Shown: in pieces, positions 817 to 31,586 of the stretch | How positions within the stretch are numbered: position 1 is the stretch's first letter | Layout: the number at the start of each line of letters is the position of its first letter | Source: Massilicoli timonensis | GTDB lineage: Bacteria; Bacillota_I; Bacilli_A; Erysipelotrichales; Erysipelotrichaceae | Assembly: GCF_900199515.1 (NCBI RefSeq) | Contig: NZ_LT963434.1 | Span: 1,383,272 to 1,415,271, forward strand | Direction of reading: 5' to 3' | Length of the DNA: 32,000 nt | Made by a program: the position numbers and the translations under genes | Notes under the pieces: generated by a model | What the model saw: only the letters and a program-made list of their open reading frames with translations | Told to the model about the DNA's origin: nothing | Database searches by the model: none

Positions 817-840
817 TGTCAATTCCTCCTTATTTTGCCA

Positions 841-1078: not shown

Positions 1079-1084
1079 GTGTAT

Positions 1085-1113
1085 TTTATATCATTGTTTC
1101 CATGAAAAGTCAA
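1085..1113 (-). promoter_or_regulatory. sigma-A-type promoter for the serS leader
   Basis: On the minus strand: TTGACT (1108-1113), a 17-nt spacer, then TATAAA (1085-1090). Confidence 0.5.
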
Positions 1114-1146
1114 TGAAAAGCGCCATAATCCAAAGACTATGGCGCT
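1112..1146 (-). terminator. intrinsic terminator after gyrA
   Basis: A 9-bp stem AGCGCCATA/TATGGCGCT (1119-1127 / 1138-1146) sits 5 nt after the gyrA stop. On the minus strand it is followed by TTTCATT, a short U tract. Confidence 0.6.
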
Positions 1147-1151
1147 GTTAT

Positions 1152-3629: not shown

Positions 3630-3644
3630 GTTCTACACCTCCTA

Positions 3645-6682: not shown

Positions 6683-6882
6683 TGAATCAAAAATACATGA
6701 CCTTCAATTACGACTTGATCTCCACTATACAATTTTCTGCCACGGCGATTTTCCACTACGCCATTTACCGTAATTTCTAATTCTTGCAGCGCTGCTTTCG
6801 CTTCCCCGCCGCTTTGAATAAAGTCCGTTAATTTCAAAAATTGACCAAGCGTAATATAGTCATTTCTGATCTTGATTTCCAT
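6679..6882 (-). CDS. yaaA: S4-domain RNA-binding protein (YaaA family)
   Basis: The ORF-track frame runs 6679-6909. I prefer ATG 6882 (MEIKIRNDYITLGQFLK...) because GAGG lies 8 nt upstream. Small S4-like protein in the conserved slot upstream of recF. Confidence 0.8.
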   Translation of the reverse strand: MEIKIRNDYITLGQFLKLTDFIQSGGEAKAALQELEITVNGVVENRRGRKLYSGDQVVIEGHVFLIQ

Positions 6883-7129
6883 AAGCAAAACCTCTTTCAT
6901 AGACTTCATTATTATACCATAAAATGAATGACTTTTGTTGCTTTTTCAAGATGTTTCAATCCTTTTTTCACTTTTTTATCCATCATGTATTCTAAAATTA
7001 TCGAATTGATTTTGTATTATTAAAATCAGTATTTAACAAGCGATTTCACATAGAAAAAGGTATTTTATTATTTTATCATCGTAACACGCATAAATAAAAA
7101 TAGAAGAACAATTTACAAAGCTTTCTTAT

Positions 7130-7678
7130 TCATTTTGCGAAATTCACAAAGTCCTCCCGATACATTTCATAATCAATAGAGGATCGTAATTTTCCTAATT
7201 GATCTTTCCATGAATTTTCATGAACTTGCAGCTTTCTAAAACCGAGTTTTTCATAAACATGCTGTGCGCGCTTATTATCGGCATTCGTGTCAAGAGTGAT
7301 TCGTTTATATCCCATATCAGAAAACAATGATGTGATCAACATACTGAGCAATTTCTTTCCTAATCCCTTATTGCATAGCGAAAGATCACAAATCTTGATG
7401 CCTATTTCAACCGTATCCTTATCCTTGATACGATAATTCATTTCACCTGCAGGAAGGTAATCAACTTCAATGATTAAATGTCTGCAAGTATGCTCGCTAT
7501 CATATTTTAGGATAGCGGCAATTTCCTTCGCTGTTTGACCGGTGCCATTAGGAAATCCTACATATGCCATTACAGTACCGTCATTCCACCATATCGCTAA
7601 TTGTTCGGCATCATCGATCGTTGCGTTTCTGATCGTTAAATTTTGATATTTTAACAACATAACATTCTTATTCTCCAT
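7130..7678 (-). CDS. GNAT-family N-acetyltransferase
   Basis: 182-aa ORF. The acetyl-CoA-binding core reads CNKGLGKKLLSMLITSLF...NKRAQHVYEKLGF. The start codon is uncertain: no clear RBS precedes M1, and M7 is an alternative. Confidence 0.75.
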   Translation of the reverse strand: MENKNVMLLKYQNLTIRNATIDDAEQLAIWWNDGTVMAYVGFPNGTGQTAKEIAAILKYDSEHTCRHLIIEVDYLPAGEMNYRIKDKDTVEIGIKICDLSLCNKGLGKKLLSMLITSLFSDMGYKRITLDTNADNKRAQHVYEKLGFRKLQVHENSWKDQLGKLRSSIDYEMYREDFVNFAK

Positions 7679-7684
7679 TGAACG

Positions 7685-7713
7685 AAAACAGTCATAAATT
7701 TTATATGACTGTT
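7685..7713 (-). terminator. hairpin between the NagA-like and GNAT genes (weak terminator)
   Basis: A 9-bp stem ACAGTCATA/TATGACTGT (7688-7696 / 7704-7712) is followed on the minus strand by TTTCGTT. Confidence 0.4.
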
Positions 7714-7729
7714 CAAAATTGATCTACTT

Positions 7730-8956
7730 CTACCCTTCATAAACTTCTTTTTGATATTGTAAATACTCAGGATTTTCAAATACTTCTGCCTGTCCTTTAT
7801 CATAAACCAGATGCCCTTTCACAAAAGTTTTCAATGCTTCATAATTTTCATCGATTACAACATAATCCGCATCTTTTCCCTCTTTTAAGCTGCCTTTGCG
7901 ATCTGCACAATGACAAATTACCGCCGGATTATAAGAAGCCATACAAATTGCCTCTTCCATCGGAATATGCAATACTTCTACCCAGTTTTTCAAACCATTT
8001 AATACATGCAACGCACTGCCGTCGATCGTACCGTCAGCAGTATGAAGCAAACCATCTGTTCCTACTTCATATCCTTTTTCTTTCGGCAGATCATATTTTC
8101 CGCACGGCATGCCGGACATATAGCCGGCGTCGGCAATGATACACAACTTTTGATATCCTTTCAAACGATAAAGCAGTTCTAAAAATTCCTTGCTGCAATG
8201 TGCCAAATCGGAATTGATCTCATTATACAAACGCATATCCAATAAAGCAGCGCCGGTTACACCAACTTCTCTTTGATGGATCGCCCGCATACAGTTTCCC
8301 GTCTTTTGCGTAATAACTGCCCCGCGATCCACCGCTTCTTTACAAATCTCATATGTAGCATTGGAATGTCCGATACAAACATTGATACCGTTCTCTACCA
8401 AATAATCGATCATTTCCATATTGCCCTCGACCTCCGGCGCCAAAGTAACAGTGATAATATGATTACGAGCAGCTTCGATAAAACGATTCATTAAAGCAAG
8501 ATCCGGTTCGCACACATCTTCCGCAGATACAGATCCTAATATTTCTTTTGAAATAAATGGTCCTTCCATATGAATTCCTAAAATTTCTGCGCCGTCGCTG
8601 CCATTTTCCAATACCTCTGCGATTGCCGCACAATTTTCTAAAACATCTTTTCGTAAATGATTGGTAGGCAAATAGCCGGTTACACCGCATGTCGTCAAGC
8701 TTCTGCTTAAATTTCTGATTTCTTCTACGTCAACTGACATAGCAGACCATCCTTTATAACCATGACAGTGTAATTCAATCAAGCCGGGAATGACTCTGCA
8801 ATCACCAAAATCCTGCACTTCTCCATCGAAAGCATCAGGCAGCTCTTTACGTAAATAAATTTTAGAAATGATACCGTCTTCTACTACCATACCACCATCT
8901 AAACAACCTCTCTCAGTATAAAGCTGTTTAGAGATCACCAGTGTTTTCAAAACCAT
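7730..8956 (-). CDS. amidohydrolase, N-acetylglucosamine-6-phosphate deacetylase (NagA)-like
   Basis: 408-aa ORF. The metal-binding motif is PGLIELHCHGYKG. The segment IGHSNATYEICKEAVDRGAVITQKTGNCMRAIHQREVGVTGAALL matches the NagA signature region from memory. Substrate is not established. Confidence 0.65.
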   Translation of the reverse strand: MVLKTLVISKQLYTERGCLDGGMVVEDGIISKIYLRKELPDAFDGEVQDFGDCRVIPGLIELHCHGYKGWSAMSVDVEEIRNLSRSLTTCGVTGYLPTNHLRKDVLENCAAIAEVLENGSDGAEILGIHMEGPFISKEILGSVSAEDVCEPDLALMNRFIEAARNHIITVTLAPEVEGNMEMIDYLVENGINVCIGHSNATYEICKEAVDRGAVITQKTGNCMRAIHQREVGVTGAALLDMRLYNEINSDLAHCSKEFLELLYRLKGYQKLCIIADAGYMSGMPCGKYDLPKEKGYEVGTDGLLHTADGTIDGSALHVLNGLKNWVEVLHIPMEEAICMASYNPAVICHCADRKGSLKEGKDADYVVIDENYEALKTFVKGHLVYDKGQAEVFENPEYLQYQKEVYEG

Positions 8957-9071
8957 CCGCTCCTTTCACTGTTTTCTTAATTTAATCATAACATTATAAC
9001 AAATAATTGAACAGTCCTATATCAATTTTCGTTTTACCATGATAGAATAGAAATTAAGATGAGGTGATGAT

Positions 9072-9479
9072 ATGAATATCAATAAAATGACTGAACAGGA
9101 TTTACAGACATTTTTCAAAGAAAATATTGAAATAAAGGAACCGATCTTATCTAAAAACTGGGCATTTATTGAAGCTATGGGAAAACATTCGCTTCAAAGC
9201 ACCGGCTTTGTCGTATTAAGTGCAGAAAACCTTTATTTTGCCTTATGCACACAATATCAGATCAAAGATAAAATCAAAACCTATACGATTCCTTTATCAC
9301 AATTAAAACTGGTCAAAGTGAAGAAAGCATTTTTATCAAAAGGCACCGTCTATTCGCTCATGGCAGACGGCACTTATTTCAATGTGAAAATCAGTACGAC
9401 AAAGTATAAAAATGTAGATTTAACAAATGATCATGAAATCTTAAAGAAAGAATTAGGAAAAGCGAAGTATCAGTTATGA
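9072..9479 (+). CDS. hypothetical small protein (possibly bacterial PH-like fold)
   Basis: 135-aa ORF with GAGGTGA RBS 4 nt upstream and a terminator directly downstream. The fold assignment is a guess from the sequence pattern only. Confidence 0.55.
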   Translation: MNINKMTEQDLQTFFKENIEIKEPILSKNWAFIEAMGKHSLQSTGFVVLSAENLYFALCTQYQIKDKIKTYTIPLSQLKLVKVKKAFLSKGTVYSLMADGTYFNVKISTTKYKNVDLTNDHEILKKELGKAKYQL

Positions 9480-9486
9480 CCGATAT

Positions 9487-9516
9487 AAAACCGATCATCA
9501 AAAGATCGGTTTTTCT
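9487..9516 (+). terminator. intrinsic terminator after the 9072-9479 ORF
   Basis: Stem AAAACCGATC/GATCGGTTTT (9487-9496 / 9504-9513) followed by TTTCTTT. Confidence 0.7.
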
Positions 9517-9535
9517 TTATAGATGATTTAGCCAT

Positions 9536-9560
9536 AAAAAAAGCGTGCATTCATCACGCT
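9536..9560 (-). terminator. intrinsic terminator after dnaN
   Basis: Stem AGCGTG/CACGCT (9542-9547 / 9555-9560) begins 2 nt after the dnaN stop and is followed on the minus strand by T6. Confidence 0.65.
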
Positions 9561-9562
9561 CT

Positions 9563-10681
9563 TTATGCATAAGTACGTACCGGCAATACCAGCTGAAGCA
9601 CATCATCATCGCCGGCTGCCTTGATGATAAAAGGCTTCATCTCACCGCAGAATTTGAAAATGACACTTTCGCCTTCCAAAGCGCGGATCGCATCAAATAC
9701 ATATCGTCCATTGCAGCTGATTTCCAGATGTTCACCCTTGAAGATGGCTCCGGCCAACACTTCGGTTGAAGAACCGACTTCCAGCGCTTTTGTCGATAAT
9801 ATACATTCTTTTTCATCCAAAGATAATTTAATTACCGATACACCGTCGTTTTTAATGAAAGAAGCACGGTCGATCGCACCAAGCAGATCGTGTGCATTCA
9901 TGCTCAGTTCGTATTCATAAGAAGTCGGGATCAGTCGTTCTGTTTCCGGATATGCGCCATCGATCAAGCGTGTCTGAATGATCGTAGAATTGATCATAAA
10001 CTGCGCTTTCTTGTCATTTACCGCAATTTCCACCAGATCCTCATCCTCTACGATTTTACTGACTTCCGCAAGACTTTTGGCAGGTATCGTAATATTGAAA
10101 GAAAGAGCAGAATCAATCTTTAATTCCTTTTTCGCAAGCCGGTAACTATCCGTTCCCACACAGTTCAACTTTCCGGCTGCCGCATGGAAATTTACACCGG
10201 TCAATACCGGTCTTGTTTCTTTATCGCTTGTGGCAAAGGCAGTCTGTGCAATGATCTGTTTTAATAAATGTCCTTCAAAAGAAAATACTTCTTTTGGCTT
10301 ACTGAAATCAATAGCCGGATAATCAGTCGCCTTCATGCCGTTGATCTTAAACTCAGCGCCGTTACCACTGATCTTTGTCAAAGCATTGTCGATGATCTCG
10401 AATTCGATTTCATCTGACTCGGTCTTGCGAACGATCTCTAATATATAACGTGCTTCGATCACGATTGCACCGTTATCTTTAATTGATAATTTGCAATCGT
10501 CTTGATTACGAATTACGGTTTGAATCGAAATATCAGAATCACTGCCGGTCAAGATCAATTCATCTGTATTTGCTTCAATCTTAATACCGCTGAAAGCAGG
10601 TAAAGGAGAATAATTAGAAATTGCTCTTGCAACGACAGATAAACCGTTATAGAAGTCTTTTTTAGAAACTGTAAAATACAT
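9563..10681 (-). CDS. dnaN: DNA polymerase III beta sliding clamp
   Basis: 372-aa ORF starting MYFTVSKKDFYNGLSVVARAIS... Three-domain clamp length, immediately downstream of dnaA. Confidence 0.97.
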   Translation of the reverse strand: MYFTVSKKDFYNGLSVVARAISNYSPLPAFSGIKIEANTDELILTGSDSDISIQTVIRNQDDCKLSIKDNGAIVIEARYILEIVRKTESDEIEFEIIDNALTKISGNGAEFKINGMKATDYPAIDFSKPKEVFSFEGHLLKQIIAQTAFATSDKETRPVLTGVNFHAAAGKLNCVGTDSYRLAKKELKIDSALSFNITIPAKSLAEVSKIVEDEDLVEIAVNDKKAQFMINSTIIQTRLIDGAYPETERLIPTSYEYELSMNAHDLLGAIDRASFIKNDGVSVIKLSLDEKECILSTKALEVGSSTEVLAGAIFKGEHLEISCNGRYVFDAIRALEGESVIFKFCGEMKPFIIKAAGDDDVLQLVLPVRTYA

Positions 10682-10827
10682 AAAATTGCTCCTTTCTTTA
10701 TTCTTTTACTATATAAGATATAATAATAAGCATGTGGATAATGGTGGAAAGCTCATAAATATGTGATAATACAAAGGTATTTTATCATTTTTTTAAGGGG
10801 AAAGAAAGTGGAATGCGGTGCAAAACC
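10682..10827. other. oriC part 2 (dnaA-dnaN spacer): tandem DnaA boxes plus TAA trios plus AT-rich tract
   Basis: A perfect DnaA box TGTGGATAA (10733-10741) abuts TGGTGGAAA (10742-10750). A degenerate TGTGATAA lies at 10762-10769. TAATAATAA (10721-10729) is separated from the perfect box by GCA. AT-rich DNA extends to the dnaN RBS. Confidence 0.75.
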
Positions 10828-12183
10828 TTAAACCCCGAGTTTTCGTTCGATCTTATGAAGCGCCTGCTGGAAAGTATCTTTTTCCTTTAACATCTTCTTC
10901 ATTTTTTCATATGAGGACATGATGGTCGTATGATCACGTCCGCCAAATTCCATACCGATCTTTGCAAAAGGCATATTCAGATGCTTACGACAAAGATAAA
11001 TGGCAATATGGCGTGGATTTGCAATGGTTGCGGTCCTGCTTTTGCTTTCTATCTGTGATTTGGTAAGACCGTAAAATTCACAAACGACCTGCTTGATCTG
11101 TGCAGCTGTCAATTCACTTTCTACTTTGATTTGTGGATCATCTTTGAAAATTTCCGTTACAAATTCCAGGTCGATCACTTCCGGATTATATAAGATCGCT
11201 TTGAAAAATAATTCATTCAAAGAACCTTCCAATTTTCTCACATCGCTGGAAAAGCGAGTTGCAAGAAAATCAAGCACTTCTTCATTGATCATAATGTTAT
11301 CATTTTGACGACCTTCCATTTTTTTGCGCAGGATCGCCTTAGCTGTTTCAAATTCCGGAGATCCGATCGGTACGGAAAGTCCGCTGGAAAAGCGTGAAAT
11401 CAAACGATTTTCAATGCCTTTTAATTCAGTTGGATGAATATCGCTGGTAATGACGATCTGCTTATTTTCATTCATCAGTTTATTGTAGATATTGAAAAAT
11501 ATTTCCTGAGAAGTGCTTTGTTTCAGACGCTGAATATCATCAATCAGTAAAAAATCATAGGTCAAGATCTTATCTTTCAGTTCTTCTACAGTCTTGGTCG
11601 TCATAGCGTTGATCAGCAGCGTAACCAGATCTTCACTGTAAATATAAAGTACACGAAGCTCAGGATTGTTTTCATGAATGAAATTGCCGATCGCATGCAG
11701 AAGATGGGTCTTACCAAGTCCGGAATTACCGAAAATAAACAGAGGGTTATACTGTCCCGGATAGTAACATACTGCTCTTGCGGCCGCTTCCGCATCACGA
11801 TTGCTCTTACCGGTTACAAAATTGTCAAACGTATATTCTTCTTTTAATTTGGTATTAAAAAACTTGGAATCAAAGTCAGACAGATTATTTTTAGAAATCT
11901 TGATCGACTGATTGATCTCTGCCTGTAAAAAAATATGACATCCGACTTTTTTACCGATGATTTGTTCAAAAACAGTTGCGATTTCTTCGATAAAATTTGT
12001 TATGATCGTTTTATGTACCTTAGTGGTAACAACAATAGAAGCAAAATCATCGTCAATATCAAAAAGATAAGAGTTGCCAAACCAGTATTTGAATTCTTCA
12101 TCACGGAAATTCAAGATTTTTTTCAGATGATCTAAAACCTGTGTATAAATGTCATTTAATTGCCCTTCTGTATAATGCACCAT
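10828..12183 (-). CDS. dnaA: chromosomal replication initiator DnaA
   Basis: 451-aa ORF. AAA+ Walker A is GNSGLGKTHLLHA and Walker B is LLIDDIQ. The C-terminal DNA-binding helix region reads GGRDHTTIMSSYEKM. AGGAGG lies 7 nt upstream. Confidence 0.98.
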   Translation of the reverse strand: MVHYTEGQLNDIYTQVLDHLKKILNFRDEEFKYWFGNSYLFDIDDDFASIVVTTKVHKTIITNFIEEIATVFEQIIGKKVGCHIFLQAEINQSIKISKNNLSDFDSKFFNTKLKEEYTFDNFVTGKSNRDAEAAARAVCYYPGQYNPLFIFGNSGLGKTHLLHAIGNFIHENNPELRVLYIYSEDLVTLLINAMTTKTVEELKDKILTYDFLLIDDIQRLKQSTSQEIFFNIYNKLMNENKQIVITSDIHPTELKGIENRLISRFSSGLSVPIGSPEFETAKAILRKKMEGRQNDNIMINEEVLDFLATRFSSDVRKLEGSLNELFFKAILYNPEVIDLEFVTEIFKDDPQIKVESELTAAQIKQVVCEFYGLTKSQIESKSRTATIANPRHIAIYLCRKHLNMPFAKIGMEFGGRDHTTIMSSYEKMKKMLKEKDTFQQALHKIERKLGV

Positions 12184-12319
12184 AGATCATCCTCCTTGCT
12201 TATCTATTTTACTATAAATGCGCGAAATAATCTATGTAAATTTAATTTGGATAAAAATCCCTTCAGCAGAGAAAATAAAATGGGGAAAATAAATAGAGAT
12301 GATTTCGTAACTAAAATAG

Positions 12320-12718
12320 TTTTCCACAATAAAAATAGGAAAAAGAGGGCATAAATCAGTATTCTGGATAGATTTCCACCGATATCCACCGGCTAAGGAT
12401 GTGGATAAGTAACAGTGGAAAAGCGAAATGGTGGAAAAATGTGGAAAAGAAATGGATCATACAAGGATCTGCACATCCTGATTGCTGAAAAATACTATGA
12501 TAAAATCAGGCGAATCAACACTTTTCAACAGATATGACAATATGTGGAAAAGTATAGAAATTGTCAGTGGATTTTATCAATCTATACAGTGGAAAACAGA
12601 GTGGAATCGCGTATATGTGAAATAATTTGTTCATCATTTGTGAATAAACTATGTAAATTTATCAATTTTTATAGATAATATTATAAAAAATGTTGATAAT
12701 TCAGTAAAATGTGGAAAA
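12320..12718. other. oriC part 1: DnaA-box cluster upstream of dnaA
   Basis: One perfect box, TGTGGATAA, lies at 12400-12408. Four one-mismatch boxes are TTTTCCACA (12320-12328) and TGTGGAAAA at 12440-12448, 12543-12551 and 12710-12718. Several two-mismatch boxes are at 12372-12380, 12382-12390, 12414-12422, 12429-12437, 12588-12596 and 12600-12608. Confidence 0.9.
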
Positions 12719-13189
12719 ATCATCATTTTTATATAGCTTATTTATTATTATTTTTCACAAAGTGAAGTTATTTTAGATGTTATATTCATATTGCTATTCA
12801 CATTTGTAAAATTTTCAATTACTTTTGTTAATAAAAATTGTTCTTATTTCATTTATATTTCCTTCACAAATTTATGTTTGCTATGAAAATGATCATAATG
12901 GAAAAGCAGATCACTTATGAAATAATAAATATGTTTTAATGATCATACAGCTTCAAAGGCGTTTTTTATGTAATTTAATTGAAATCAATATCAAATATTC
13001 AGATAAGGTACTACTATTATATGAATCAATAAAATAAGATCATGTGAGATTTTTTCAAACAACTGGCGATTCTATCATTTTATGATTACAAAATAATGAT
13101 GAAAAACACATTCGAAAAATAAATTGATTACCTATTAAAATAAGATGGAAAAAAGATCTGGGAGCTTGTTCCTAAAAATGAAATAATAC
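12719..13189. other. AT-rich non-coding tract of the origin region
   Basis: About 470 nt with no ORF above noise. It is very AT-rich by eye and holds relaxed DnaA-box-like TTTTTCACA (12761-12769) and further TTCACA repeats. It lies between the box cluster and the rpmH promoter. Confidence 0.6.
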
Positions 13190-13218
13190 TTGACGAATAC
13201 CGCAAATTTATATATAAT
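13190..13218 (+). promoter_or_regulatory. sigma-A promoter of rpmH
   Basis: TTGACG (13190-13195), a 17-nt spacer, then consensus TATAAT (13213-13218). Confidence 0.7.
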
Positions 13219-13274
13219 CAAAAAGCAATGCTCAATTATGTATAAAAAATGAATAGAAGTGGAGGTGGCTCATT

Positions 13275-13409
13275 ATGAAAAGAACATATCAACCGAGCAA
13301 AAGAAAACACCAGAAAACTCACGGATTCAGGGCCAGAATGGCTACTGTTGGAGGACGCAAAGTCTTAGCGCGTCGTCGTAGTAAAGGTAGAAAAGTGTTA
13401 TCAGCATAA
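13275..13409 (+). CDS. rpmH: 50S ribosomal protein L34
   Basis: Below the ORF-track cutoff. My translation is [44 protein letters not shown], with a GGAGGTG RBS upstream. Confidence 0.97.
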
Positions 13410-13434
13410 AAATCACCTTCGGGTGATTTTTTTG
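13410..13434 (+). terminator. hairpin plus T-run between rpmH and rnpA (partial terminator)
   Basis: AAATCACC-TTCG-GGTGATTT (13410-13429) followed by TTTT, immediately after the rpmH stop. Confidence 0.6.
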
Positions 13435-13461
13435 TAAAAGATGAAGAAAGGGGTATCAGAC

Positions 13462-13794
13462 ATGAAAAAGCAGTTTCGTATCAAAAAGAGTGAAGAATTT
13501 GCTGAAATCATGGGTGCAAAGAAATTTTATACATGTCCTTCCTTTGTCATTTATGTAAAACCACGAAAAGAAGATCATGCAAGAGTAGGTATTTCAGTCG
13601 GTAAAAAGATCGGAAATGCGGTTGTACGCAATAAAGTGAAGCGCCAAGTACGGATGATATTGCATGAAATATTTGATTTTAACGGCAATTTTGACATGAT
13701 TTTATTGGTTCGGATAAAATATTTAGATGAAAATTACAATACCAATAAAAACTGCTTGGAAAAATTGCTTAAAAAAGTTAAAATAGATAAGTAA
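13462..13794 (+). CDS. rnpA: ribonuclease P protein component
   Basis: The ORF-track frame starts at 13441. I prefer ATG 13462 (MKKQFRIKKSEEF...) because a GAAAGGGG RBS precedes it. It has the basic RNR-type motif NAVVRNKVKRQVR and the conserved position after rpmH. Confidence 0.9.
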   Translation: MKKQFRIKKSEEFAEIMGAKKFYTCPSFVIYVKPRKEDHARVGISVGKKIGNAVVRNKVKRQVRMILHEIFDFNGNFDMILLVRIKYLDENYNTNKNCLEKLLKKVKIDK

Positions 13795-13817
13795 GTGATA
13801 GCGAGGAGAATGTATCA

Positions 13818-14696
13818 ATGAAAAACATTATGAAGGATAAGCGAAAATTATTGCTGTTATGTGTTTTGGTTTTAGTGGTATTGACCGCTTGTTCCAGTCC
13901 GCGCGGTGAGGATGGAAAAATTTTAGCAGAAAAAATCATCAGTTTGGATACACCGTTTACTTTAGATGGAAGCTGGTTTGACGGATTGATCGTATGGCCG
14001 ATTGCACAGTTGATCAATTTAGTGGCTTCTCATAGTGATGCCGGTATCGGTGTCATTGTCGCAACGCTGCTCATTCAGCTTTTGACTTCAGCATTTACGA
14101 TCAAATCACAAGTATCTTCTCAGAAGATGCAGATGATGCAGCCGGAGCTCAGTAAGATTCAAGCAAAATATGCCGGCAAGACCGATGAACAGTCAAGAAT
14201 GAGAATGGCACAGGAAATGCAGGCTCTATATTCCAAATATAAAGTCAATCCATTCAGTTCGATCTTGGTGATGTTTTTACAGTTTCCGATTATTTTAGGA
14301 ATGTATCAGGCAGTACAGCGTGCTGATACCGTCATCAACGGAAACTTTTTAGGTATCAATCTTTCTATCAATGCCATTGACGGTATTAAAGCATTTGATA
14401 TTGCATTCATCGTAATTTTTGCACTGATGGTTGTTTCTCAGTTTGTTTCAATGAAAATTCCGATGTGGCTGCAAGCGCGCAGAAAGAAGAGAATGCACAT
14501 CAAAGAAAAGAAATATGCACAGCCGGAAAACAATGGCGGCATGATGAAAAATATGAATACGATGATGTATGTCAGCATGGGAATGGTTGCGGTGTTCGCA
14601 CTGATGTGGCCATTGGGAATGTCATTCTACTGGATGGTTTCTTCCATTGCTCGTATCATTCAAAATTTCATTATTGATAAATTCTTTATTAAGTAA
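13818..14696 (+). CDS. yidC: membrane protein insertase YidC/SpoIIIJ family (lipoprotein)
   Basis: 292-aa ORF with a signal peptide and lipobox VLTAC, multiple TM segments and a basic C-terminal tail. Conserved position after rnpA. Confidence 0.9.
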   Translation: MKNIMKDKRKLLLLCVLVLVVLTACSSPRGEDGKILAEKIISLDTPFTLDGSWFDGLIVWPIAQLINLVASHSDAGIGVIVATLLIQLLTSAFTIKSQVSSQKMQMMQPELSKIQAKYAGKTDEQSRMRMAQEMQALYSKYKVNPFSSILVMFLQFPIILGMYQAVQRADTVINGNFLGINLSINAIDGIKAFDIAFIVIFALMVVSQFVSMKIPMWLQARRKKRMHIKEKKYAQPENNGGMMKNMNTMMYVSMGMVAVFALMWPLGMSFYWMVSSIARIIQNFIIDKFFIK

Positions 14697-14709
14697 CGGA
14701 GGTGTTTTC

Positions 14710-15315
14710 ATGAAAGAATATACAGGTAAGACTTTAGAAGAAGTCCTGCATCAGATTGCTGATGAAAAAGGTGTCAGTGCCGATGCGATCACTTATGAAT
14801 TAGTAGATGAGAAAAAAGGGTTTTTAGGAATCGGAAGTGAAGTGACAGTACGTGCATACTGTGAACCGGATATTCAAGAATTCATGAAAACATACTTAAC
14901 TGCTTATTTTAATAACATCGAAATGGATGTGGCGATCACGATCGAAAATGATGAAGGTTTTTATCGCATCAATCTGGATGCCGATAACAATGCGATCTTG
15001 ATCGGCAGAAACGGACAGACTTTACAGGCAATCAATACAGTGTTGAAAACTGCCGTTTCCAGTGAATTTAAGAAACGTATCGGAGTACTGATCGACATTA
15101 ACGGCTATAAAGAAGATAAATATGAAAAAGTATGTTCTTTAGCAAAACGGGTTGCCAGAACAGTACAGCGTACTAAAACTGATGCAGTATTAGATCCGAT
15201 GCCTGCCGATGAAAGAAAAGCCATTCACAACGCTTTATCAGATATGGAACATATCATGACCCAAAGTGAAGGAGAAGGCAATCAGCGTCGATTAAAAATT
15301 ATTTACGCAGAATAA
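14710..15315 (+). CDS. jag: Jag/KhpB-type RNA-binding protein (Jag-N, KH, R3H)
   Basis: The ORF-track frame starts at 14647, inside yidC. I prefer ATG 14710 (MKEYTGKTLEEV...), preceded by GGAGGTG. The KH-like segment reads ILIGRNGQTLQAIN and the R3H-like segment PMPADERKAIHNAL. Confidence 0.9.
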   Translation: MKEYTGKTLEEVLHQIADEKGVSADAITYELVDEKKGFLGIGSEVTVRAYCEPDIQEFMKTYLTAYFNNIEMDVAITIENDEGFYRINLDADNNAILIGRNGQTLQAINTVLKTAVSSEFKKRIGVLIDINGYKEDKYEKVCSLAKRVARTVQRTKTDAVLDPMPADERKAIHNALSDMEHIMTQSEGEGNQRRLKIIYAE

Positions 15316-25348: not shown

Positions 25349-25383
25349 AACAAAAAAGGAACCTCATGCAAAGAAGTTCCTTT
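25349..25383 (-). terminator. intrinsic terminator after nrdG
   Basis: Stem AAAGGAAC/GTTCCTTT (25355-25362 / 25376-25383) is followed on the minus strand by TTTGTTAT. It begins 6 nt after the nrdG stop. Confidence 0.7.
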
Positions 25384-25389
25384 TATGGT

Positions 25390-25917
25390 CTATTCATCAA
25401 GATGCTGATTGACCTCATCATAAGCGCTCAAGATCACCTGCTGCTTTGCCAGCGACTGCTGCACATCAATGATCCGCTGATTTTTGGATCCTTTGAAGCG
25501 CAGTCGATAATCTTTTTGTGCTTCAATGAAACGTCCGTCTACCAATACGTCTATATGTTCCAGCAGTGCTTTTTTCTCTTTGTCACACAGCAGTTCCTCA
25601 AATGTATAACCACTGTATGCCCAGACGTTGAGCTTCATTTCCTCTTTCGCAAAGACAGCGATCGGAATCAGCGCCGCGCTTTGATCAAAGGGTTCACCGC
25701 CGGATAAGGTCAGCCCGCTTTGTAAACGGATCTGTTTCATCTCCTCGATGATACGTGTTACATCCACTGATACACCGCCGTTTGGATCGTGTGTCTGAGG
25801 ATTATGACAGTTTGGGCAGTGATGGGGACAGCCTTGTGTCCAAAGCACCATGCGTAAGCCCGGTCCATCAACGATACTGTCTCTTTGCAGATCAGAAGCA
25901 AGCCTTACACTAAGCAT
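25390..25917 (-). CDS. nrdG: anaerobic ribonucleoside-triphosphate reductase activating protein (radical SAM)
   Basis: 175-aa ORF with VDGPGLRMVLWTQGCPHHCPNCHN (CxxxCxxC) and LSGGEP. Its start overlaps the nrdD end by 8 nt. Confidence 0.93.
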   Translation of the reverse strand: MLSVRLASDLQRDSIVDGPGLRMVLWTQGCPHHCPNCHNPQTHDPNGGVSVDVTRIIEEMKQIRLQSGLTLSGGEPFDQSAALIPIAVFAKEEMKLNVWAYSGYTFEELLCDKEKKALLEHIDVLVDGRFIEAQKDYRLRFKGSKNQRIIDVQQSLAKQQVILSAYDEVNQHLDE

Positions 25918-28258
25918 GCTTTACGCGATCTCTTTCTTCAGCCGCCTTGGAATCATTGAAACGGTCAAGTGTACCTACTAAATAGCCGGTAATACGTCTG
26001 ATCTTTTCAAATTTCATTTCGCTCTTGTATTCATCACGGCCGCATTTCGGGCATACATGTCCTTCGATCACTCCGCTGTATCCGCAGACCGGATCACGAT
26101 CCACCGGATGATTGATGCTGCCATAGCCGACGCCGGCTTCTTTCATACATCTTACGATTGCTTCAAATGCTTCCAAGTTGTTGCATGGATCGCCGTCCAC
26201 CTCTACATAGGAAATATGACCGGCATTGGTAAAGGCATGATATGGTGCTTCTCGTTCGATCTTTTCAAAGGCGCCGATGTGATAGTAAACCGGTACATGG
26301 AAGCTGTTGGTATAATATTCACGATCGGTAACGCCCGGAACCACACCGTAAAGTTTTTTATCAATGCGCGTAAAGCGTCCGGATAATCCTTCTGCCGGAG
26401 TGGCGATCAAAGAGAAATTGAGATGATACTGATTCATCGCCTCATCCATGCGATCACGCATATGACCGATGATCTTTAAGCCTAAAGCCTGCGCTTCATC
26501 ACTTTCTCCGTGATGTTTTCCAATCAGCGCTTTCAAGCATTCCGCTAAGCCGATAAAGCCAACGGTAAGAGTACCTTGCTTGATCACTTCTTCTAACGTA
26601 TCATTCCAGTTTAACTTATCAGCGCCGAGCCATACACCCTGTCCCATTAAGAACGGGAAGTTTTTCACTTTCTTTTGTCCCTGGATCGCCATACGCTCTA
26701 ATAACTGCTGAATGACAGAATCGATTTTCTCATCTAATTCCTGGAAGAAACCGGCTTCATCGAATTTACCGTTTAATGCCACACCGTGCTTTAAGCCTAA
26801 ACGCGGAAGGTTAATGGAAGTAAAGGACAAATTGCCTCGTCCGGTTACGATTTCCGGTCCGCAGCAGTTGCTGATCACACGCGTACGGCATCCCATATAA
26901 GTCGCTTCCGTATCCGGATCTCCTTCCTTATAATATTGCAAATTGAACGGTGCATCCAAGAAAGAAAAGTTCGGGAACAAACGCTTTGCGGAAACGCGGC
27001 AGCTTAACTTGAACAAGTCATAGTTTGGATCGCCTTCATTGTAATTGACGCCTTCTTTTACTTTGAAGATCAAGATCGGGAAGATCGGTGTTTCCCCATT
27101 GCCCAGACCTGCTTCCTGTGCTAATAACAGATTTTTCGATACCATACGACCTTCACTGCTGGTATCGGTGCCGAAGTTGATGCTGCTGAAAGGAACCTGT
27201 GCGCCGGCACGAGAGTGCATCGTATTCAAATTATGGATAAAGCCTTCCATTGACTGGAATGTCTTTTTATCAGTGTCTTTCAAAGCATTGCGATAAGCAA
27301 ATTCCTCGATCAGATCCATTTGTTTATTGCCGATATGATAGGTATCGTGCAAGAAAGTACGCTGCTTTTCTAAATATTCCTGTTTCATATCGATTTCCGG
27401 CTGCATGCCCCATGCTTTGATTTGGTTTTCTAAGCTATCCTTCAGATCGATTTCATCATCGACCAGCACTTCCAAAGCACGGCTTAAATTGCGGATATAT
27501 TCGCGTTTGAAGGTTTTGCGTACGCCCGGTGCCAAATAGTAGTCAAAGGATGGAATGCTCTGTCCGCCATGCTGATCATTTTGATCGCTTTGGATCGCAA
27601 TCGCCGCTAATGCCCCATAGCTTAAAATATCCTGCGGTTCACGCAGATGACCGTGTCCTGTTGAGAAACCGCCGTTAAATAATTTATTCAGATCGATCTG
27701 ACAGCAGGTCAAAGTACCCATATTCATAAAGTCCATATCATGAATATGAATGTCGCCGTTTTCGTGCATTTTCGCATGCAGCGGATTCATGACTTCATTC
27801 ATACAGAATTCTTTAGAAATGGCGCTGCCGTATTGCAGCATCGTACCCATTGCGGTATTACCGTCAATATTGGCGTTTTCACGCTTGACATCGCCGTCCT
27901 CACCATCGGCATCCGCATATGTGATCTGTCCGATCGCTTTCATGATGCGGGATTTGGAGTTACGGATTCGAGAACGCTGATCACGATACAAAATGTATGC
28001 CTCTGCGGTTTTCGCATGTCCTTCTTCGATCAGCACTTTAATGACCGCATCCTGAATATCCTCTACATTAGGGGTCGCGTCAAAGTGTGATTCAAGATAA
28101 TGAATGACCTTAGTCGTCAAAAGTTCGGCAGTTGTGTAGTCCGCTTCCTTTCCTTCCTGCGATGCTACGCTGTTGGCTGCTAAATAAATGGCCCGTGTAA
28201 TTTTTTCCGGGGTGAAATGGATTTCGCGTCCATCTCTTTTTTGGATCATCGTAATCAT
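25910..28258 (-). CDS. nrdD: anaerobic (class III) ribonucleoside-triphosphate reductase
   Basis: 782-aa ORF. It has an N-terminal ATP-cone (IQKRDGREIHFTPEKI), the thiyl loop YMGCRTRV, a C-terminal Zn ribbon CGYSG...CPKCG and the glycyl-radical motif RRITGYLV. Confidence 0.96.
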   Translation of the reverse strand: MITMIQKRDGREIHFTPEKITRAIYLAANSVASQEGKEADYTTAELLTTKVIHYLESHFDATPNVEDIQDAVIKVLIEEGHAKTAEAYILYRDQRSRIRNSKSRIMKAIGQITYADADGEDGDVKRENANIDGNTAMGTMLQYGSAISKEFCMNEVMNPLHAKMHENGDIHIHDMDFMNMGTLTCCQIDLNKLFNGGFSTGHGHLREPQDILSYGALAAIAIQSDQNDQHGGQSIPSFDYYLAPGVRKTFKREYIRNLSRALEVLVDDEIDLKDSLENQIKAWGMQPEIDMKQEYLEKQRTFLHDTYHIGNKQMDLIEEFAYRNALKDTDKKTFQSMEGFIHNLNTMHSRAGAQVPFSSINFGTDTSSEGRMVSKNLLLAQEAGLGNGETPIFPILIFKVKEGVNYNEGDPNYDLFKLSCRVSAKRLFPNFSFLDAPFNLQYYKEGDPDTEATYMGCRTRVISNCCGPEIVTGRGNLSFTSINLPRLGLKHGVALNGKFDEAGFFQELDEKIDSVIQQLLERMAIQGQKKVKNFPFLMGQGVWLGADKLNWNDTLEEVIKQGTLTVGFIGLAECLKALIGKHHGESDEAQALGLKIIGHMRDRMDEAMNQYHLNFSLIATPAEGLSGRFTRIDKKLYGVVPGVTDREYYTNSFHVPVYYHIGAFEKIEREAPYHAFTNAGHISYVEVDGDPCNNLEAFEAIVRCMKEAGVGYGSINHPVDRDPVCGYSGVIEGHVCPKCGRDEYKSEMKFEKIRRITGYLVGTLDRFNDSKAAEERDRVKHA

Positions 28259-28496
28259 AATTCTCTTCCTTTCTTAGTTGATCATTTTGCCTGTTTTCAG
28301 AATCGGTTTTCTTCTTGCACAAACAGGTATATTTTAACGAAATTCATATTTGATTTCCAGTAGGAAACTTCATTTTCAAAAATTTTACAATTTTCTCCTA
28401 CAATGTGTTGGATGAAATGAAGGCAGAAACCTTCGCTTTGTGAAAAGATCGCTTCTTTGATTGTTCAGATATGTTTTCAGTAAAGAAACTATCATT

Positions 28497-30383
28497 TCAT
28501 TGTGTGGATAAAGATAATTGAAAATACGGAAGCCGATAGTGTTTCAATACCTTTTTTACCAATAGCTCCAGTATTTCGGTATCCGTCTGCGGATCCTCTA
28601 AATGGATCGTGAATAAAGGGCCGGCAGTAAAGAGCGGCTGTAATGTGTTTGCCAGATCCATCTGCTCAAAGAGGTCGGAAGGCGGATGAGGAGGCAGAAA
28701 GACGCCGGCGCTGTAGACATCGCTTGCATGCATGTCCTTTTCCATTTGCGGATAACGGCTGCGATCGCTTTTCGCAAAGCGCTGAAGACAGGTCGATTGC
28801 ATTGTTTCCGCCAGATTAAAAGCGCATCCATACTGCTTTTGATAACCGATCAGCTTTACGCGCATATGGGTCAATACAGCTTTCGCAAACGCCTGTGTTT
28901 TCTCGTGCAATAAATCTTGCTTCAGCCAGTTCGCATAAATACCGGCTTCATTCATCCCGACGATGCCGATCGTGGCAAAATGGTTCGCAAAGCTGTGCAG
29001 GTAGCGTTTGGTATAAGGATATAAGCCTGCTTCCATGAGTTTGTCTAATACACTGCGCTTCATTTGCAAAGCGCGTGCCGCCAGATCCATCTGCTTATCT
29101 AACTTCACATAGAAATCCGTTTCATCTTCCGCCAAATAAGCGATGCGCGGCAGATTGATCGTAACCGTTCCGATCGAGCCGCTGTGCACAGCGCTGAGTT
29201 GTTCGCCGGCTGCGTGAGAAAGCTGATTTGCACTAGCTTGATGAACGTTCATGCCTTGCCAAAGCGCCTTTATATCTGCATTTTGTTCATTGATCAAACG
29301 CGGTGTGCCGCATTCTTTGATCAGCTGAAACAGCAGCTGTTTGTTTGGGTGATCGCTTGTTAGGATGGCTTCTGCCGGATAAAAAGGAATCGGATAGCGG
29401 AACGGGTTTTGCTTGCCGTCTTTTTTTAACAATACACTGAAAAATGCCTGATTGATCAGATCCATTTCCTTTTGACATTCTCCATAAGTAAACGCGGCAC
29501 AAACCCCACCGACAATCGCTCTTCGATCGGCAAGATGTTTTGGCACATGCCAGTCAAACGCAATATGGATATCGGGAAGTCGTGCGCCCCATCGGCTTGG
29601 TGCATTGATGCCGTAGATCAATGCTTCCATCGCATTTTTCACTTCTTCAAAGGAAAGCTGTTCCCATTTTACAAAGGGCGCTAAATAGGTGTCAAAGGAA
29701 AGCATGGACTGTGTGCCTGCCCATTCGTTCTGCATGATGCCTAAAAAGGTATGCAGCTGATTGCAAAGAGTAAACAAATGACGAGCCGGTTTGGCACTCG
29801 CTTCACTGTAAAGCCCATCTAAACCTTCCTCGATCAACTGCTTCGGCGACCAGCCTGCGCTTACTGCACTCAGCATGGATAAATCGTGAATATGCAGATC
29901 TGCGTTTCGATGCGCCTCGGCGATTTCTTCATCATACACCTCATAAAGCCAGTAATTTCTGCTGATCGCAGCGCTGTTGCTGAAAATCAGACCTCCCATT
30001 GAAAAAGGAGCGGTGGCGTCGTTGTGTGTCAGCGCGCTTTTATCCTTTACATAGCTGTCGATCATCTCTTTGTGGTCGAGCAGCGTCGATTTCATATCGC
30101 GTACTTTTTCTCTTTGCTTACGGTAAAGAATATAAGCCTTGGCAACTTCGTGATAGCCGGACTGGATCAATATGGACTCTACACTGTCCTGGATATCCTC
30201 GACCTGAACGGCGTTGCTTTTGATCTTGCTGTCGAAATCAGCAGTTACCCGCAGCGCCAAAAGATCAATGACCGAAGGATGGATGCTGGTGCCGGTTGCC
30301 TGAAAAGCCTTTTGGATGGCAGCGGTAATTTTGGCAATATCAAACGCCGCTTTCTTGCCGTCACGCTTCATTACTTCATACAC
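28497..30383 (-). CDS. NrdD-like protein with ATP-cone but no Zn-ribbon/glycyl-radical domain (probably catalytically inactive paralog)
   Basis: 628-aa ORF collinear with NrdD: VMKRDGKKAAFDIAKI, ADLHIHDL, SFDTYLAP, TVTINLPR. It ends at ...LPYFQLSLSTQ, before the Zn-ribbon/RxxGY region. The start is GTG 30383 or ATG 30371; the latter overlaps the upstream stop as TAATG. Confidence 0.8.
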   Translation of the reverse strand: MYEVMKRDGKKAAFDIAKITAAIQKAFQATGTSIHPSVIDLLALRVTADFDSKIKSNAVQVEDIQDSVESILIQSGYHEVAKAYILYRKQREKVRDMKSTLLDHKEMIDSYVKDKSALTHNDATAPFSMGGLIFSNSAAISRNYWLYEVYDEEIAEAHRNADLHIHDLSMLSAVSAGWSPKQLIEEGLDGLYSEASAKPARHLFTLCNQLHTFLGIMQNEWAGTQSMLSFDTYLAPFVKWEQLSFEEVKNAMEALIYGINAPSRWGARLPDIHIAFDWHVPKHLADRRAIVGGVCAAFTYGECQKEMDLINQAFFSVLLKKDGKQNPFRYPIPFYPAEAILTSDHPNKQLLFQLIKECGTPRLINEQNADIKALWQGMNVHQASANQLSHAAGEQLSAVHSGSIGTVTINLPRIAYLAEDETDFYVKLDKQMDLAARALQMKRSVLDKLMEAGLYPYTKRYLHSFANHFATIGIVGMNEAGIYANWLKQDLLHEKTQAFAKAVLTHMRVKLIGYQKQYGCAFNLAETMQSTCLQRFAKSDRSRYPQMEKDMHASDVYSAGVFLPPHPPSDLFEQMDLANTLQPLFTAGPLFTIHLEDPQTDTEILELLVKKVLKHYRLPYFQLSLSTQ

Positions 30384-31528
30384 ATGCCGTCACGCTCCTT
30401 TCCTTCTTTGATCTGCACACAAGCGACACTTTCCGCAAGAATTGCCTGAAAGGTGCGCATCGTATCCATATTGACCGGATGCAGACCGGATTGGATGATC
30501 TGCCCATTGTCCTCAAATACCTGCAATACACATTTCTTGGCACCGCGCAGTAGTTCTTTCATTTCCAGCAGATCGCTTTTTTCATGCAGTTCTTTGACGA
30601 TCGTCGTACGAAACTCATAGGGGACGAGTCCCTGCTTCAAAAAATCAATGCTTTCTTGGATCAAATGAAAATCAAGATCATCAATGCCGGCGCTTTCCCC
30701 ATAGCGTGTCCACCCGTTCTTAACATCCATCGCCACATAATCGACATAACCGTTTCTAACCAGCTCTTTCAAATAAGCGGGATATGCGCCGTTTGTATCT
30801 AATTTGATCCGGTAGCCGAGATCATGCAGCTTGCTTAAAAACGGCCGCAGCTCGTGCATCAGCGGTTCCCCGCCGCTTAAAGTGACGCAGTCGATCAGAC
30901 CTGCTCGTTTGCTTAAATAAGAGAAGATCGTATCGCCGCTGATTTCATTTTGACCTTCGCTTACATAGACGAGGTTGCTGTTTTTACAGAACGGACAGCG
31001 AAAATTACAGCCGCCGGTATAAAGAACACAGGCAAGATTGCCGGGATAGTCGCGAAATGACACCTTCTGCATCTCAAAGAGCTTAAGCGATCCTCTCTTT
31101 ACATCATCAAAGCTGCGTGCATTTTCACAAAGCTTCGATTGAATGCGGGAAAAAGCAGTGATATCCGCCTCCTCCATGTCTTGCGTCAAATGCTCCCACC
31201 AGTCTTTTCTTACCATATAAAGCTGGGCGATCATTCCTTTGGTTTGATCGGTCGTATATAAACGCTTTACACGCTTATCCGCTTCGTCACTTGCCATTGC
31301 GACATAATTGCTCTGCATGAGCTTCTGTATGCTTTTGGTGATCGTTCCCTTGTCATAGCCGCACATATCTGCTAAGCGATTCATCGCGATGCCTTCATGT
31401 TCATAAATCTGAATCAGGATCGGCAAATGAGAGAAATTGATGTCATAGGCTTCCAGACATTTGTCATAATACTTTTGGGTGCAGCGATATAAGATCGAGG
31501 TATCCATTAAAATATCACTGTCTTTCAT
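30371..31528 (-). CDS. MarR-family winged-HTH fused to an NrdG-type radical-SAM activase
   Basis: I prefer ATG 31528 (MKDSDILMDTS...), 8 nt after AGGAGGA; the ORF track starts at 31582. The N-terminal MarR pattern is LPILIQIYEHEGIAMNRLADMCGYDKGTITKSIQKLMQSNYV...DKRVKRLYTT. The C-terminal half carries YPGNLACVLYTGGCNFRCPFCKN and LSGGEPL. Confidence 0.8.
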   Translation of the reverse strand: MKDSDILMDTSILYRCTQKYYDKCLEAYDINFSHLPILIQIYEHEGIAMNRLADMCGYDKGTITKSIQKLMQSNYVAMASDEADKRVKRLYTTDQTKGMIAQLYMVRKDWWEHLTQDMEEADITAFSRIQSKLCENARSFDDVKRGSLKLFEMQKVSFRDYPGNLACVLYTGGCNFRCPFCKNSNLVYVSEGQNEISGDTIFSYLSKRAGLIDCVTLSGGEPLMHELRPFLSKLHDLGYRIKLDTNGAYPAYLKELVRNGYVDYVAMDVKNGWTRYGESAGIDDLDFHLIQESIDFLKQGLVPYEFRTTIVKELHEKSDLLEMKELLRGAKKCVLQVFEDNGQIIQSGLHPVNMDTMRTFQAILAESVACVQIKEGKERDGMCMK

Positions 31529-31553
31529 CTGTCGAATCCTCCTGTCTTTTACT

Positions 31554-31586
31554 ATGATAGCACTAGATAGTTGAACATTCAACTAT
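31554..31586 (-). promoter_or_regulatory. promoter with overlapping 9+9 inverted repeat (candidate MarR operator)
   Basis: On the minus strand: TTGAAT (31577-31582), a 17-nt spacer, then TATCAT (31554-31559). The inverted repeat ATAGTTGAA-CA-TTCAACTAT (31567-31586) covers the -35 and the spacer. Confidence 0.55.

Follow-up and report, generated by a model that had tools for sequence, protein, structure and literature searches.

Described class III reductases and related regulators

Few allosteric enzymes have been studied as intensively as the ribonucleotide reductases (RNRs). In the class III enzyme, NrdD, the glycyl-radical domain is the usual site at which the activase engages the reductase. 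The finger loop of class III RNRs carries its cysteine or cysteines in an MGCR or MCCR motif (PMC9669993), and a further cysteine on strand beta-A (Cys125 in T. maritima) was reported to be conserved in every RNR known (PMC4493059), with a conservation of 92.6% within class III in large RNR phylogenies (PMC9669993). Here, a 628-amino-acid (628-aa) homologue of NrdD is described, which is encoded in a stretch of 32,000 nucleotides (nt) of the Massilicoli timonensis genome (contig NZ_LT963434.1, positions 1,383,272 to 1,415,271; the whole stretch is referred to as the window, and coordinates are counted from its first letter). The gene lies between that of a MarR domain fused to a radical-SAM activase of the NrdG2 type (MarR::NrdG2) and a complete nrdD-nrdG pair, and its product is predicted to be catalytically dead.

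The closest described system is the double-cysteine (MCCR) class III NrdD, listed as NrdDh-like in RNRdb and including the enzymes of T. maritima (4COI/4U3E) and N. bacilliformis, whose thioredoxin-fused form is represented by the NCBIfam model NF006126. The dead NrdD shares the fold and domain order of these enzymes up to the last barrel strand, retains the ATP-cone, the HxHD motif and the QNEWAG/FDTYLAP segment of the specificity site, and has the gene of an NrdG2-type activase adjacent to it. It differs from them in the absence of the beta-A Cys, the finger-loop Cys, the zinc ribbon, the glycyl-radical domain and the thioredoxin domain, and in a degenerate phosphate loop.

An example of an ATP-cone that drives transcriptional control is NrdR, the repressor of nrd genes. 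The same logic would hold at the present locus, with an ATP-cone that reads ATP/dATP (deoxyadenosine triphosphate) and nrd transcription at a promoter operator as the output. In NrdR, the ATP-cone and a zinc-ribbon DNA-binding domain are combined in one small protein, whereas here the ATP-cone is carried by a 628-aa dead enzyme and the MarR DNA-binding domain by a separate radical-SAM fusion; beyond the ATP-cone there is no homology between NrdR and the 628-aa protein. Dead RNR subunits with new roles are also known, namely the betaherpesvirus R1 homologues (M45/UL45) and yeast Rnr4. An RNR alpha subunit from Epstein-Barr virus is mentioned as regulating another enzyme (PMC9669993). These repurposed subunits resemble the window protein in that catalytic residues were lost and the protein was, as it would be here, kept by selection for a non-catalytic role, but they are class I proteins of eukaryotes or their viruses, whereas the window protein belongs to bacterial class III, keeps its allosteric domain and appears to represent a type that arose repeatedly.

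A NrdD homologue without catalytic parts

The open reading frames (ORFs) listed in a preliminary description of this DNA, which was made from the letters alone, were rechecked, and all of them are present on the - strand at the positions given there. The 628-aa ORF (28497..30383, - strand, GTG start) was characterized by Pfam and NCBIfam searches, a family alignment and an AlphaFold2 model. Pfam places an ATP-cone at aa 3-92 (30108..30377, - strand; PF03477, 81.8 bits) and the NRDD domain at aa 126-624 (PF13597, 332 bits, profile positions 6-505 of 562), and finds no DNA-binding domain in the protein. The match to NF006126 (624.9 bits against a cut-off of 548) covers profile positions 2-625 of 684 only, which means that the C-terminal glycyl-radical part is absent. 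The closest relatives are functional enzymes of about 795 aa from Holdemania, Sharpea, Longicatena, Oscillospiraceae and other Clostridia, with 52-53% identity, which consist of an ATP-cone, an NRDD barrel, a zinc ribbon, an SRITGYY motif and a C-terminal CPNC thioredoxin-like domain and belong to the double-cysteine finger-loop lineage described earlier (PMC9669993; PMC4493059). The preliminary description regarded the ORF as a degenerate paralogue of the adjacent NrdD. It is indeed a NrdD homologue without the catalytic parts, but not a close paralogue of its neighbour; a recent duplication of the adjacent 782-aa NrdD was rejected, since the two proteins are 24% identical and the 628-aa protein belongs to a different, MCCR-type and thioredoxin-fused subclass.

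The residues of the protein were compared in an alignment with 80 close functional homologues. The beta-A motif GYCAGWS reads AVSAGWS, in which Val174 and Ser175 (codons 29859..29864, - strand) stand in place of Tyr and Cys; as the preliminary description had reported, this segment is free of Cys. The finger loop SMCCRLRL is replaced by LWQGMNVH within a degenerate region (aa 367-401; 29181..29285, - strand) that also carries a 5-aa deletion, and no Cys occurs in aa 346-405. The thiyl-loop cysteine is thus lost as first proposed, although the change is from Cys-Cys to Trp-Gln and not from Cys to Met. In the substrate triphosphate site the HxHD motif is kept as HIHD, the phosphate loop EATPAEST has degenerated to AETMQSTC, and the W/N flap residues are absent. 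The protein terminates at LPYFQLSLSTQ, just past the last barrel strand, and this is where, as had been noticed, the homologues go on, here with a zinc ribbon, SRITGYY and a CPNC thioredoxin-like domain. A tblastn search with the C-termini of five homologues detected no glycyl-radical or thioredoxin remnant in the 238 nt downstream (28259-28496), in agreement with the earlier reading of this spacer, and matched only the glycyl-radical domain of the functional NrdD at 25925-26089. A frameshift or a hidden C-terminus was rejected on this basis, since no such similarity lies downstream in any frame. The AlphaFold2 model (predicted local distance difference test, pLDDT, 70.6) adopts the NrdD fold, with template-modelling (TM) scores of 0.55-0.66 to class III RNR structures; the ATP-cone (pLDDT 81-93) and the barrel core are modelled with confidence, and the finger loop (pLDDT 31-34) is predicted to be disordered. 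With all three radical/redox elements lost along with the substrate-phosphate loop, the ORF cannot encode a ribonucleotide reductase, as the preliminary description held. The family comparison shows what, judged by its residues, is a non-catalytic derivative of an MCCR-type, thioredoxin-fused class III RNR.

Selection on the dead NrdD

Over the span of the 628-aa protein, the functional family has a mean identity of 86%, and in 434 columns conservation reaches at least 95% among the 80 homologues. The window protein keeps 253 of these columns, versus at least 420 in every functional homologue. Retention differs strongly between regions. The ATP-cone keeps all of its conserved columns (41/41; Fisher p = 7e-11 against the rest), the region of alpha-A, alpha-B and loop 2 keeps 74%, the post-finger region 78%, the C-terminal barrel 36% and the finger-loop region (aa 346-405) 28%. 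Residues K6, R7, Y87, R91 and R95 of the dead NrdD correspond to Lys7, Arg8, Tyr83, Arg87 and Arg91 of P. copri NrdD, which contact dATP (PMC11226230).

Between the window and the one divergent strain variant (L001), the dead nrdD gene carries 16 synonymous and 12 non-synonymous differences, with a ratio of non-synonymous to synonymous rates (dN/dS) of 0.20 (binomial p = 4e-5 against neutrality). The same strain pair gives 0.025 for the MarR::NrdG2 fusion and 0.024 for the functional NrdD, the value of the dead copy being about 8 times higher. The identical 628-aa protein is encoded on 14 metagenome contigs; the DNA of contigs L002-L006 is identical to the window, and the differences within the P0374 cluster are too few to add power. 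Among 5.8 billion proteins there is no intermediate between 98% and 53% identity, and this sequence form occurs in one species only; a scan of the genome collection with the 628-aa protein returned a best match of 52%. In a simulation of neutral drift that started from the Holdemania gene and left indels uncounted, the share of runs with an open frame was 3% at 90% identity and 0.05% at 80%. The dead NrdD is itself about 50% identical to the functional family with its frame still open, which is very unlikely under drift. Taken at the level of sequence, these comparisons show purifying selection on the protein and a fully conserved allosteric domain, and the 628-aa protein is with high probability a maintained pseudoenzyme. 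The suggestion of a pseudoenzyme with a retained ATP-cone, made in the preliminary description, is therefore upheld by the 41 retained columns and the dN/dS value.

Recurrence of dead NrdDs

When 1.84 billion cluster representatives were searched exhaustively with HMMER and the matches were scored for motifs, 22 further 50%-identity clusters emerged in which neither the beta-A Cys nor the finger-loop Cys is present, and the locus is accordingly not the single-species oddity that it might have been. Nine key residues of the ATP-cone were checked; all are kept in 20 of the 22 clusters, and one is changed in each of the other two. Most of these proteins terminate just past the last barrel strand. 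Two of them (P0370 and P0371) keep a dead thioredoxin-domain remnant, which shows descent from the thioredoxin-fused enzyme. Across 11 full-length dead lineages, the columns lost in common are Y174, C175, M380-L384, N527/E529/P532/E534, W117/N122 and H597/G601/E602, and the columns kept in common are the ATP-cone, H166-D167, Q209, E220, G223, D231-P236 and N414. Of the dead homologues, the window protein and five of eight others that were tested pass the NCBIfam equivalog threshold for 'ribonucleoside triphosphate reductase', so that genome-based metabolic reconstructions will count a reductase that cannot work.

The dead NrdDs are nearer to the functional family than to one another (for example, 0.45 between the window protein and P0363 versus 0.52 between the window protein and the functional family), and so are their partners (0.36 to one another versus 0.46 to the partners of the functional family). 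Shared derived states amount to 0.05-0.27 for pairs that include the window protein, which is the background level, versus 0.38 in one clear sister pair. These values point to independent origins, and the comparison favours repeated losses of catalysis in separate lineages. A neighbour-joining tree was uninformative on the monophyly of the dead NrdDs, as their long branches form a comb.

Genomic context was available for four dead lineages. In the window species, in the P0363 lineage (L099) and in the P0513 lineage (L100-L102), a MarR::radical-SAM fusion is encoded immediately upstream of the dead NrdD, and in the latter two the dead gene is not adjacent to another nrdD. The fourth lineage (L103, of the P0370 lineage) has no fusion, and its dead NrdD adjoins pyrC and pyrF; this protein (7992-11033) has 1013 aa and contains a long insert of acidic, low-complexity sequence as well as a thioredoxin remnant that has degenerated (DPNC). 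The co-occurrence of truncated NrdD and fusion, a survey of which was suggested in the preliminary description, holds in three of the four dead lineages examined, but it fails in L103 and is not exclusive, because functional enzymes have the fusion too. A metagenome scan with P0370 met functional enzymes at 79 of 80 loci, L103 being the sole dead one. Besides pyrC and pyrF, the neighbours of the dead gene in L103 include a small alarmone-synthetase-like gene and genes for an S-adenosylhomocysteine hydrolase and a tetratricopeptide-repeat protein.

Other departures from the usual NrdD were also met. P0378 and P0383 keep the glycyl-radical Gly (SRVAGYY and IRVSGYY) and lack the MCCR finger loop, and P0383 additionally lacks the beta-A Cys and the zinc-ribbon Cys; they may be stages of degeneration or may carry out a different chemistry. 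In metagenomes, split NrdD-thioredoxin enzymes (L160-L182) are encoded by an ORF of about 715 aa, which has the catalytic Cys and terminates within the zinc ribbon with a coiled coil, followed by a second ORF of roughly 190 aa that comprises a coiled coil, the glycyl-radical motif TEVYARIVGYYR and a thioredoxin domain with CPNC, and then by the activase gene (for example 7854-10022 and 10019-10585 of L166). The large protein of these systems terminates before the glycyl-radical motif, as does the window protein, but it keeps all catalytic Cys and its missing part is the next ORF, whereas the window protein has neither.

The MarR::NrdG2 fusion and its operator

The fusion gene (30371..31528, - strand) starts at ATG 31528 behind an AGGAGG ribosome-binding site and encodes 385 aa, the length at which it is also called on metagenome contigs; an alternative start at TTG 31582 was rejected, as this position lies inside the promoter. 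Its winged-helix MarR part spans about aa 1-150 (31079-31528, - strand; PF12802, MarR_2, 38.1 bits against a cut-off of 27; PF01047, MarR, 29.4 against 24.6), and its radical-SAM activase part spans about aa 152-385 (30374-31075, - strand; TIGR02495, NrdG2, 175.6 bits against 131.15). The CX3CX2C cluster motif (CNFRCPFC) and the GGE motif for S-adenosylmethionine (SAM) binding (GGEPL) are intact, and 82 of 98 family-invariant columns are kept; the preliminary description was right to see here a MarR domain fused to a complete activase. It was also right about the coupling of the two genes, as the GTG start of the 628-aa ORF overlaps the stop of the fusion by 13 nt. No cognate glycyl-radical substrate is encoded alongside the fusion, since the coupled dead NrdD has no glycyl-radical domain and the next NrdD has a TIGR02491 activase of its own.

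The fusion is not, as had been implied, special to the degenerate copy. Fusions of 376-382 aa precede functional NrdD-thioredoxin genes as their usual partner in Holdemania, Sharpea, Amedibacterium and C. innocuum, among others, and in many Erysipelotrichaceae MarR::NrdG2 fusions are annotated as activases; the notion that the fusion is a novelty of the window locus was rejected for this reason. In Clostridia, an unfused activase of 220 aa takes its place. At one such clostridial locus (L009, 8466-9374), a gene for a thioredoxin-reductase-like flavoprotein lies directly 3' of the NrdD-thioredoxin gene, which fits a thioredoxin-type reduction of this subclass. The window fusion is 46-48% identical to the Holdemania and Sharpea fusions, which are 52% identical to each other, and has therefore diverged at the rate normal for the family; for NrdD, the dead copy of the window is 53% identical to those of Holdemania and Sharpea versus 78-81%. 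In Erysipelotrichales, functional NrdD-thioredoxin enzymes ancestrally have the MarR::NrdG2 fusion as their partner.

A sigma-70-type promoter (31554..31582, - strand) precedes the fusion gene, with the -35 element TTGAAT at 31577-31582, a spacer of 17 nt and the extended -10 element TGcTATCAT (31554-31559), scoring 9 of 12 matches plus the TG motif in the promoter scan. Overlapping the -35 element is a palindrome at 31567..31586 (ATAGTTGAA-TG-TTCAACTAT), predicted to be an operator, with two perfect arms of 9 nt (9+9). It is unique in the window and none is expected in shuffled sequence, and the palindrome to which the preliminary description drew attention is thus real. Its core, GTTGAA-N4-TCAAC, was found 5' of the fusion gene in six lineages (the window, Holdemania, Sharpea, Amedibacterium, C. 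innocuum and L095), and, among the fetched loci, a strict operator pattern was present wherever a MarR domain is encoded (10 of 10) and at none of those that lack one (0 of 82). In C. innocuum, the promoter architecture of the fusion gene is nearly identical to that of the window. The C. innocuum promoter (L094, about 3935-3975) has two copies of the operator core, one over the -35 element and the other between the -10 element and the ribosome-binding site, of which the window keeps only the upstream one. The fusion shares with MarR-family autoregulators the winged-helix MarR domain and a perfect palindrome over its own promoter, and differs from them by its fusion to a complete NrdG2-type radical-SAM activase. 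The presence of the core in six lineages and its tracking of the MarR domain are good comparative evidence that this domain acts as an autoregulator, and the palindrome at 31567-31586 is its probable binding site. In the literature searched, neither dead or inactive RNRs of class III nor fusions of MarR with an activase are described. The fusion with its conserved operator, widespread in Erysipelotrichales, is apparently undescribed, and it is likely to be a regulator of anaerobic synthesis of deoxyribonucleoside triphosphates (dNTPs) in this order.

Possible function of the dead NrdD

Based on these observations, we lean towards the view that selection has preserved the 628-aa protein as a pseudoenzyme, which binds (d)ATP and has a regulatory role. 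This combined statement draws on two parts of different strength, the maintenance of the pseudoenzyme, which is well founded, and the specific mechanism of a transcriptional switch, which is tentative and on balance doubtful; the modest preference for the whole reflects both. We infer nucleotide binding, protein-protein contact and a regulatory output of the dead NrdD from the parts that it keeps.

The mechanism would be as follows. In Erysipelotrichales, NrdD-thioredoxin normally belongs to a two-gene operon, behind a MarR::NrdG2 fusion. With the second, complete nrdD-nrdG pair presumably doing the chemistry in this species, the old enzyme has shed its radical/redox residues, the substrate-phosphate loop, the active-site flap and the entire C-terminus. 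What it retains are the ATP-cone and the HxHD motif, together with loop 2 and the helices that belong to the dimer/specificity-site interface. Most likely, the fusion recognizes the palindrome that holds the -35 element through its MarR domain, which would result in autoregulation. The dead NrdD, which appears to be translationally coupled to MarR::NrdG2, may still bind ATP/dATP as a dimer, and perhaps dNTP effectors, and could modulate the MarR::NrdG2 repressor, the functional NrdD or both, either through the old contact between reductase and activase or through ATP-cone oligomerization. The activase part, whose [4Fe-4S]/SAM core is kept, could add sensitivity to oxygen or redox state. As there is no terminator before nrdD-nrdG, the promoter controlled by the operator may also feed the functional reductase.

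Many lineages have kept the same parts in parallel, which suggests that a regulatory role already existed in the functional NrdD-thioredoxin enzyme and may have outlived catalysis; if the wider claim that follows is true, the functional MarR::NrdG2-NrdD pair would have had such a moonlighting role before. A wider claim can be formulated, namely that dead ATP-cone NrdDs are a recurrent class of bacterial (d)ATP sensors which, with the MarR::radical-SAM partner, form a two-protein, NrdR-independent transcriptional switch, responsive to nucleotides and to oxygen or redox state, for deoxyribonucleotide supply in Erysipelotrichales; we consider it possible but rather unlikely in this full form. If true, it would describe a new type of nucleotide sensor, a class III homologue that sheds its chemistry and keeps its allosteric ATP-cone, repeatedly in gut Firmicutes, and a natural experiment on which parts of NrdD serve regulation and not catalysis.

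Several observations weigh against this regulatory interpretation. The operator motif is single in the window, and none lies before the functional nrdD. The glycyl-radical domain is missing from the dead protein, and the presumed contact with NrdG2 may therefore no longer exist. L103 has no MarR or activase neighbour, so that a partner is not obligatory for the role of the dead protein. The dN/dS value is based on a single strain pair with 28 differences, and a single deep origin of the dead NrdDs is possible. In the partners of the three dead pairs, the radical-SAM part is relaxed, with 63, 51 and 49 of 77 conserved columns kept versus at least 70 in functional partners. The cluster and SAM motifs of these partners are still kept, and their MarR part, which retains 38, 39 and 31 of 45 conserved columns, is the better kept in two of the three; this would be expected if the activase no longer had a substrate but the protein still served in DNA binding.

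A serious alternative, although we judge it improbable, is that the dead NrdD acts at the protein level on the functional NrdD or on another ATP-cone protein, through hetero-oligomers that depend on dATP and tune or buffer reductase activity, and that MarR::NrdG2 is merely a co-expressed autoregulator. Such an action is suggested by P. copri NrdD, in which ATP-cones drive dATP-dependent shifts from dimer to tetramer (PMC11226230), and it agrees with the retention, in all dead lineages, of just the ATP-cone and dimer-interface columns. The dead gene also lies immediately upstream of the functional nrdD without a terminator between them, and the partnerless gene of L103 next to pyrC and pyrF would likewise fit. 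However, the dead and the functional NrdD, at 24% identity, belong to different subclasses, the pairing of their ATP-cones is purely hypothetical, and the MarR fusion is kept in three of the four dead lineages, two of which do not have the dead gene beside another nrdD.

It is quite unlikely that the ORF is a non-functional relic, i.e., a redundant reductase decaying after the loss of its C-terminus, with a frame that is open by chance or for translational coupling or polarity. Redundancy is plausible, since a complete nrdD-nrdG pair directly follows, and both the roughly eightfold faster change of the dead copy at non-synonymous sites than in its neighbours and the gap from 98% to 53% identity around a form confined to one species would suit a decaying gene. 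A dN/dS significantly under the neutral value, the rarity of open frames in the drift runs at 80% identity even with indels uncounted, the strongly non-uniform conservation that spares the whole ATP-cone and the same selective pattern in at least 10 full-length lineages all speak against it. That the protein is still a reductase or another radical enzyme, either with a glycyl-radical domain supplied in trans by a small protein, as the natural split enzymes with their ORF of about 190 aa may suggest, or with the fused activase, whose cluster and SAM motifs are strongly constrained, doing new radical chemistry on a ligand in the old barrel with its HxHD triphosphate motif, is very improbable, because GYCAGWS and SMCCRL, both retained in the split enzymes, are absent from the window protein, no small glycyl-radical ORF exists in the window besides the C-terminus of the functional NrdD, the protein has lost its phosphate-binding loop and its flap, and disorder is predicted for the finger loop.

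The functional nrdD-nrdG pair and the surrounding region

On the - strand, the gene order is promoter, MarR::NrdG2 fusion, 628-aa NrdD-like ORF, a spacer of 238 nt, 782-aa NrdD, 175-aa NrdG and terminator. The spacer between the dead and the functional nrdD (28259..28496, - strand) contains a weak promoter-like site at 28331-28359 and, in the promoter and terminator scan, no terminator. The full nrdD-nrdG pair reported on the same strand was found complete; NrdD (25910..28258, - strand), with an MGCR finger loop, a zinc ribbon and the RRITGYLV motif, matches NF005497 with 1126 bits against a cut-off of 764, and its activase NrdG (25390..25917, - strand) matches TIGR02491 with 158.6 bits against 126.1. 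An intrinsic terminator with a 12-bp stem and a T run (25354..25384, - strand), the sole strong terminator of the cluster on this strand, lies 3' of nrdG. A scan of 24.8-32 kb with Rfam returned nothing over noise.

The nearest homologues of the functional NrdD, with 74-78% identity, come from Erysipelotrichaceae as well, so that both reductase types are native to this family and their redundancy is long-standing. A relative with 77% NrdD identity (L097) has a syntenic order, tmk-holB-PSP1-rsmI ... nrdD-nrdG, in which the slot between rsmI and nrdD (5462-7586) is occupied by a response regulator and a histidine kinase instead of MarR::NrdG2 and the dead NrdD. No conserved element emerged when the sequences upstream of nrdD from the window, L097 and L098 were aligned. 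In some strains of the same species (L002, 3359-4838), an element with Tn916-type Xis and integrase lies a few kb upstream of tmk-holB-rsmI, beyond the window.

Positions 1-15315 of the window span the chromosomal replication origin, with gyrA, gyrB, recF, dnaN and dnaA on the - strand and yidC and jag next on the + strand. The GC skew changes sign at an AT-rich stretch at 12-13 kb (GC 0.275). The nrd cluster is located about 13-19 kb from the replication origin and is transcribed head-on to replication.

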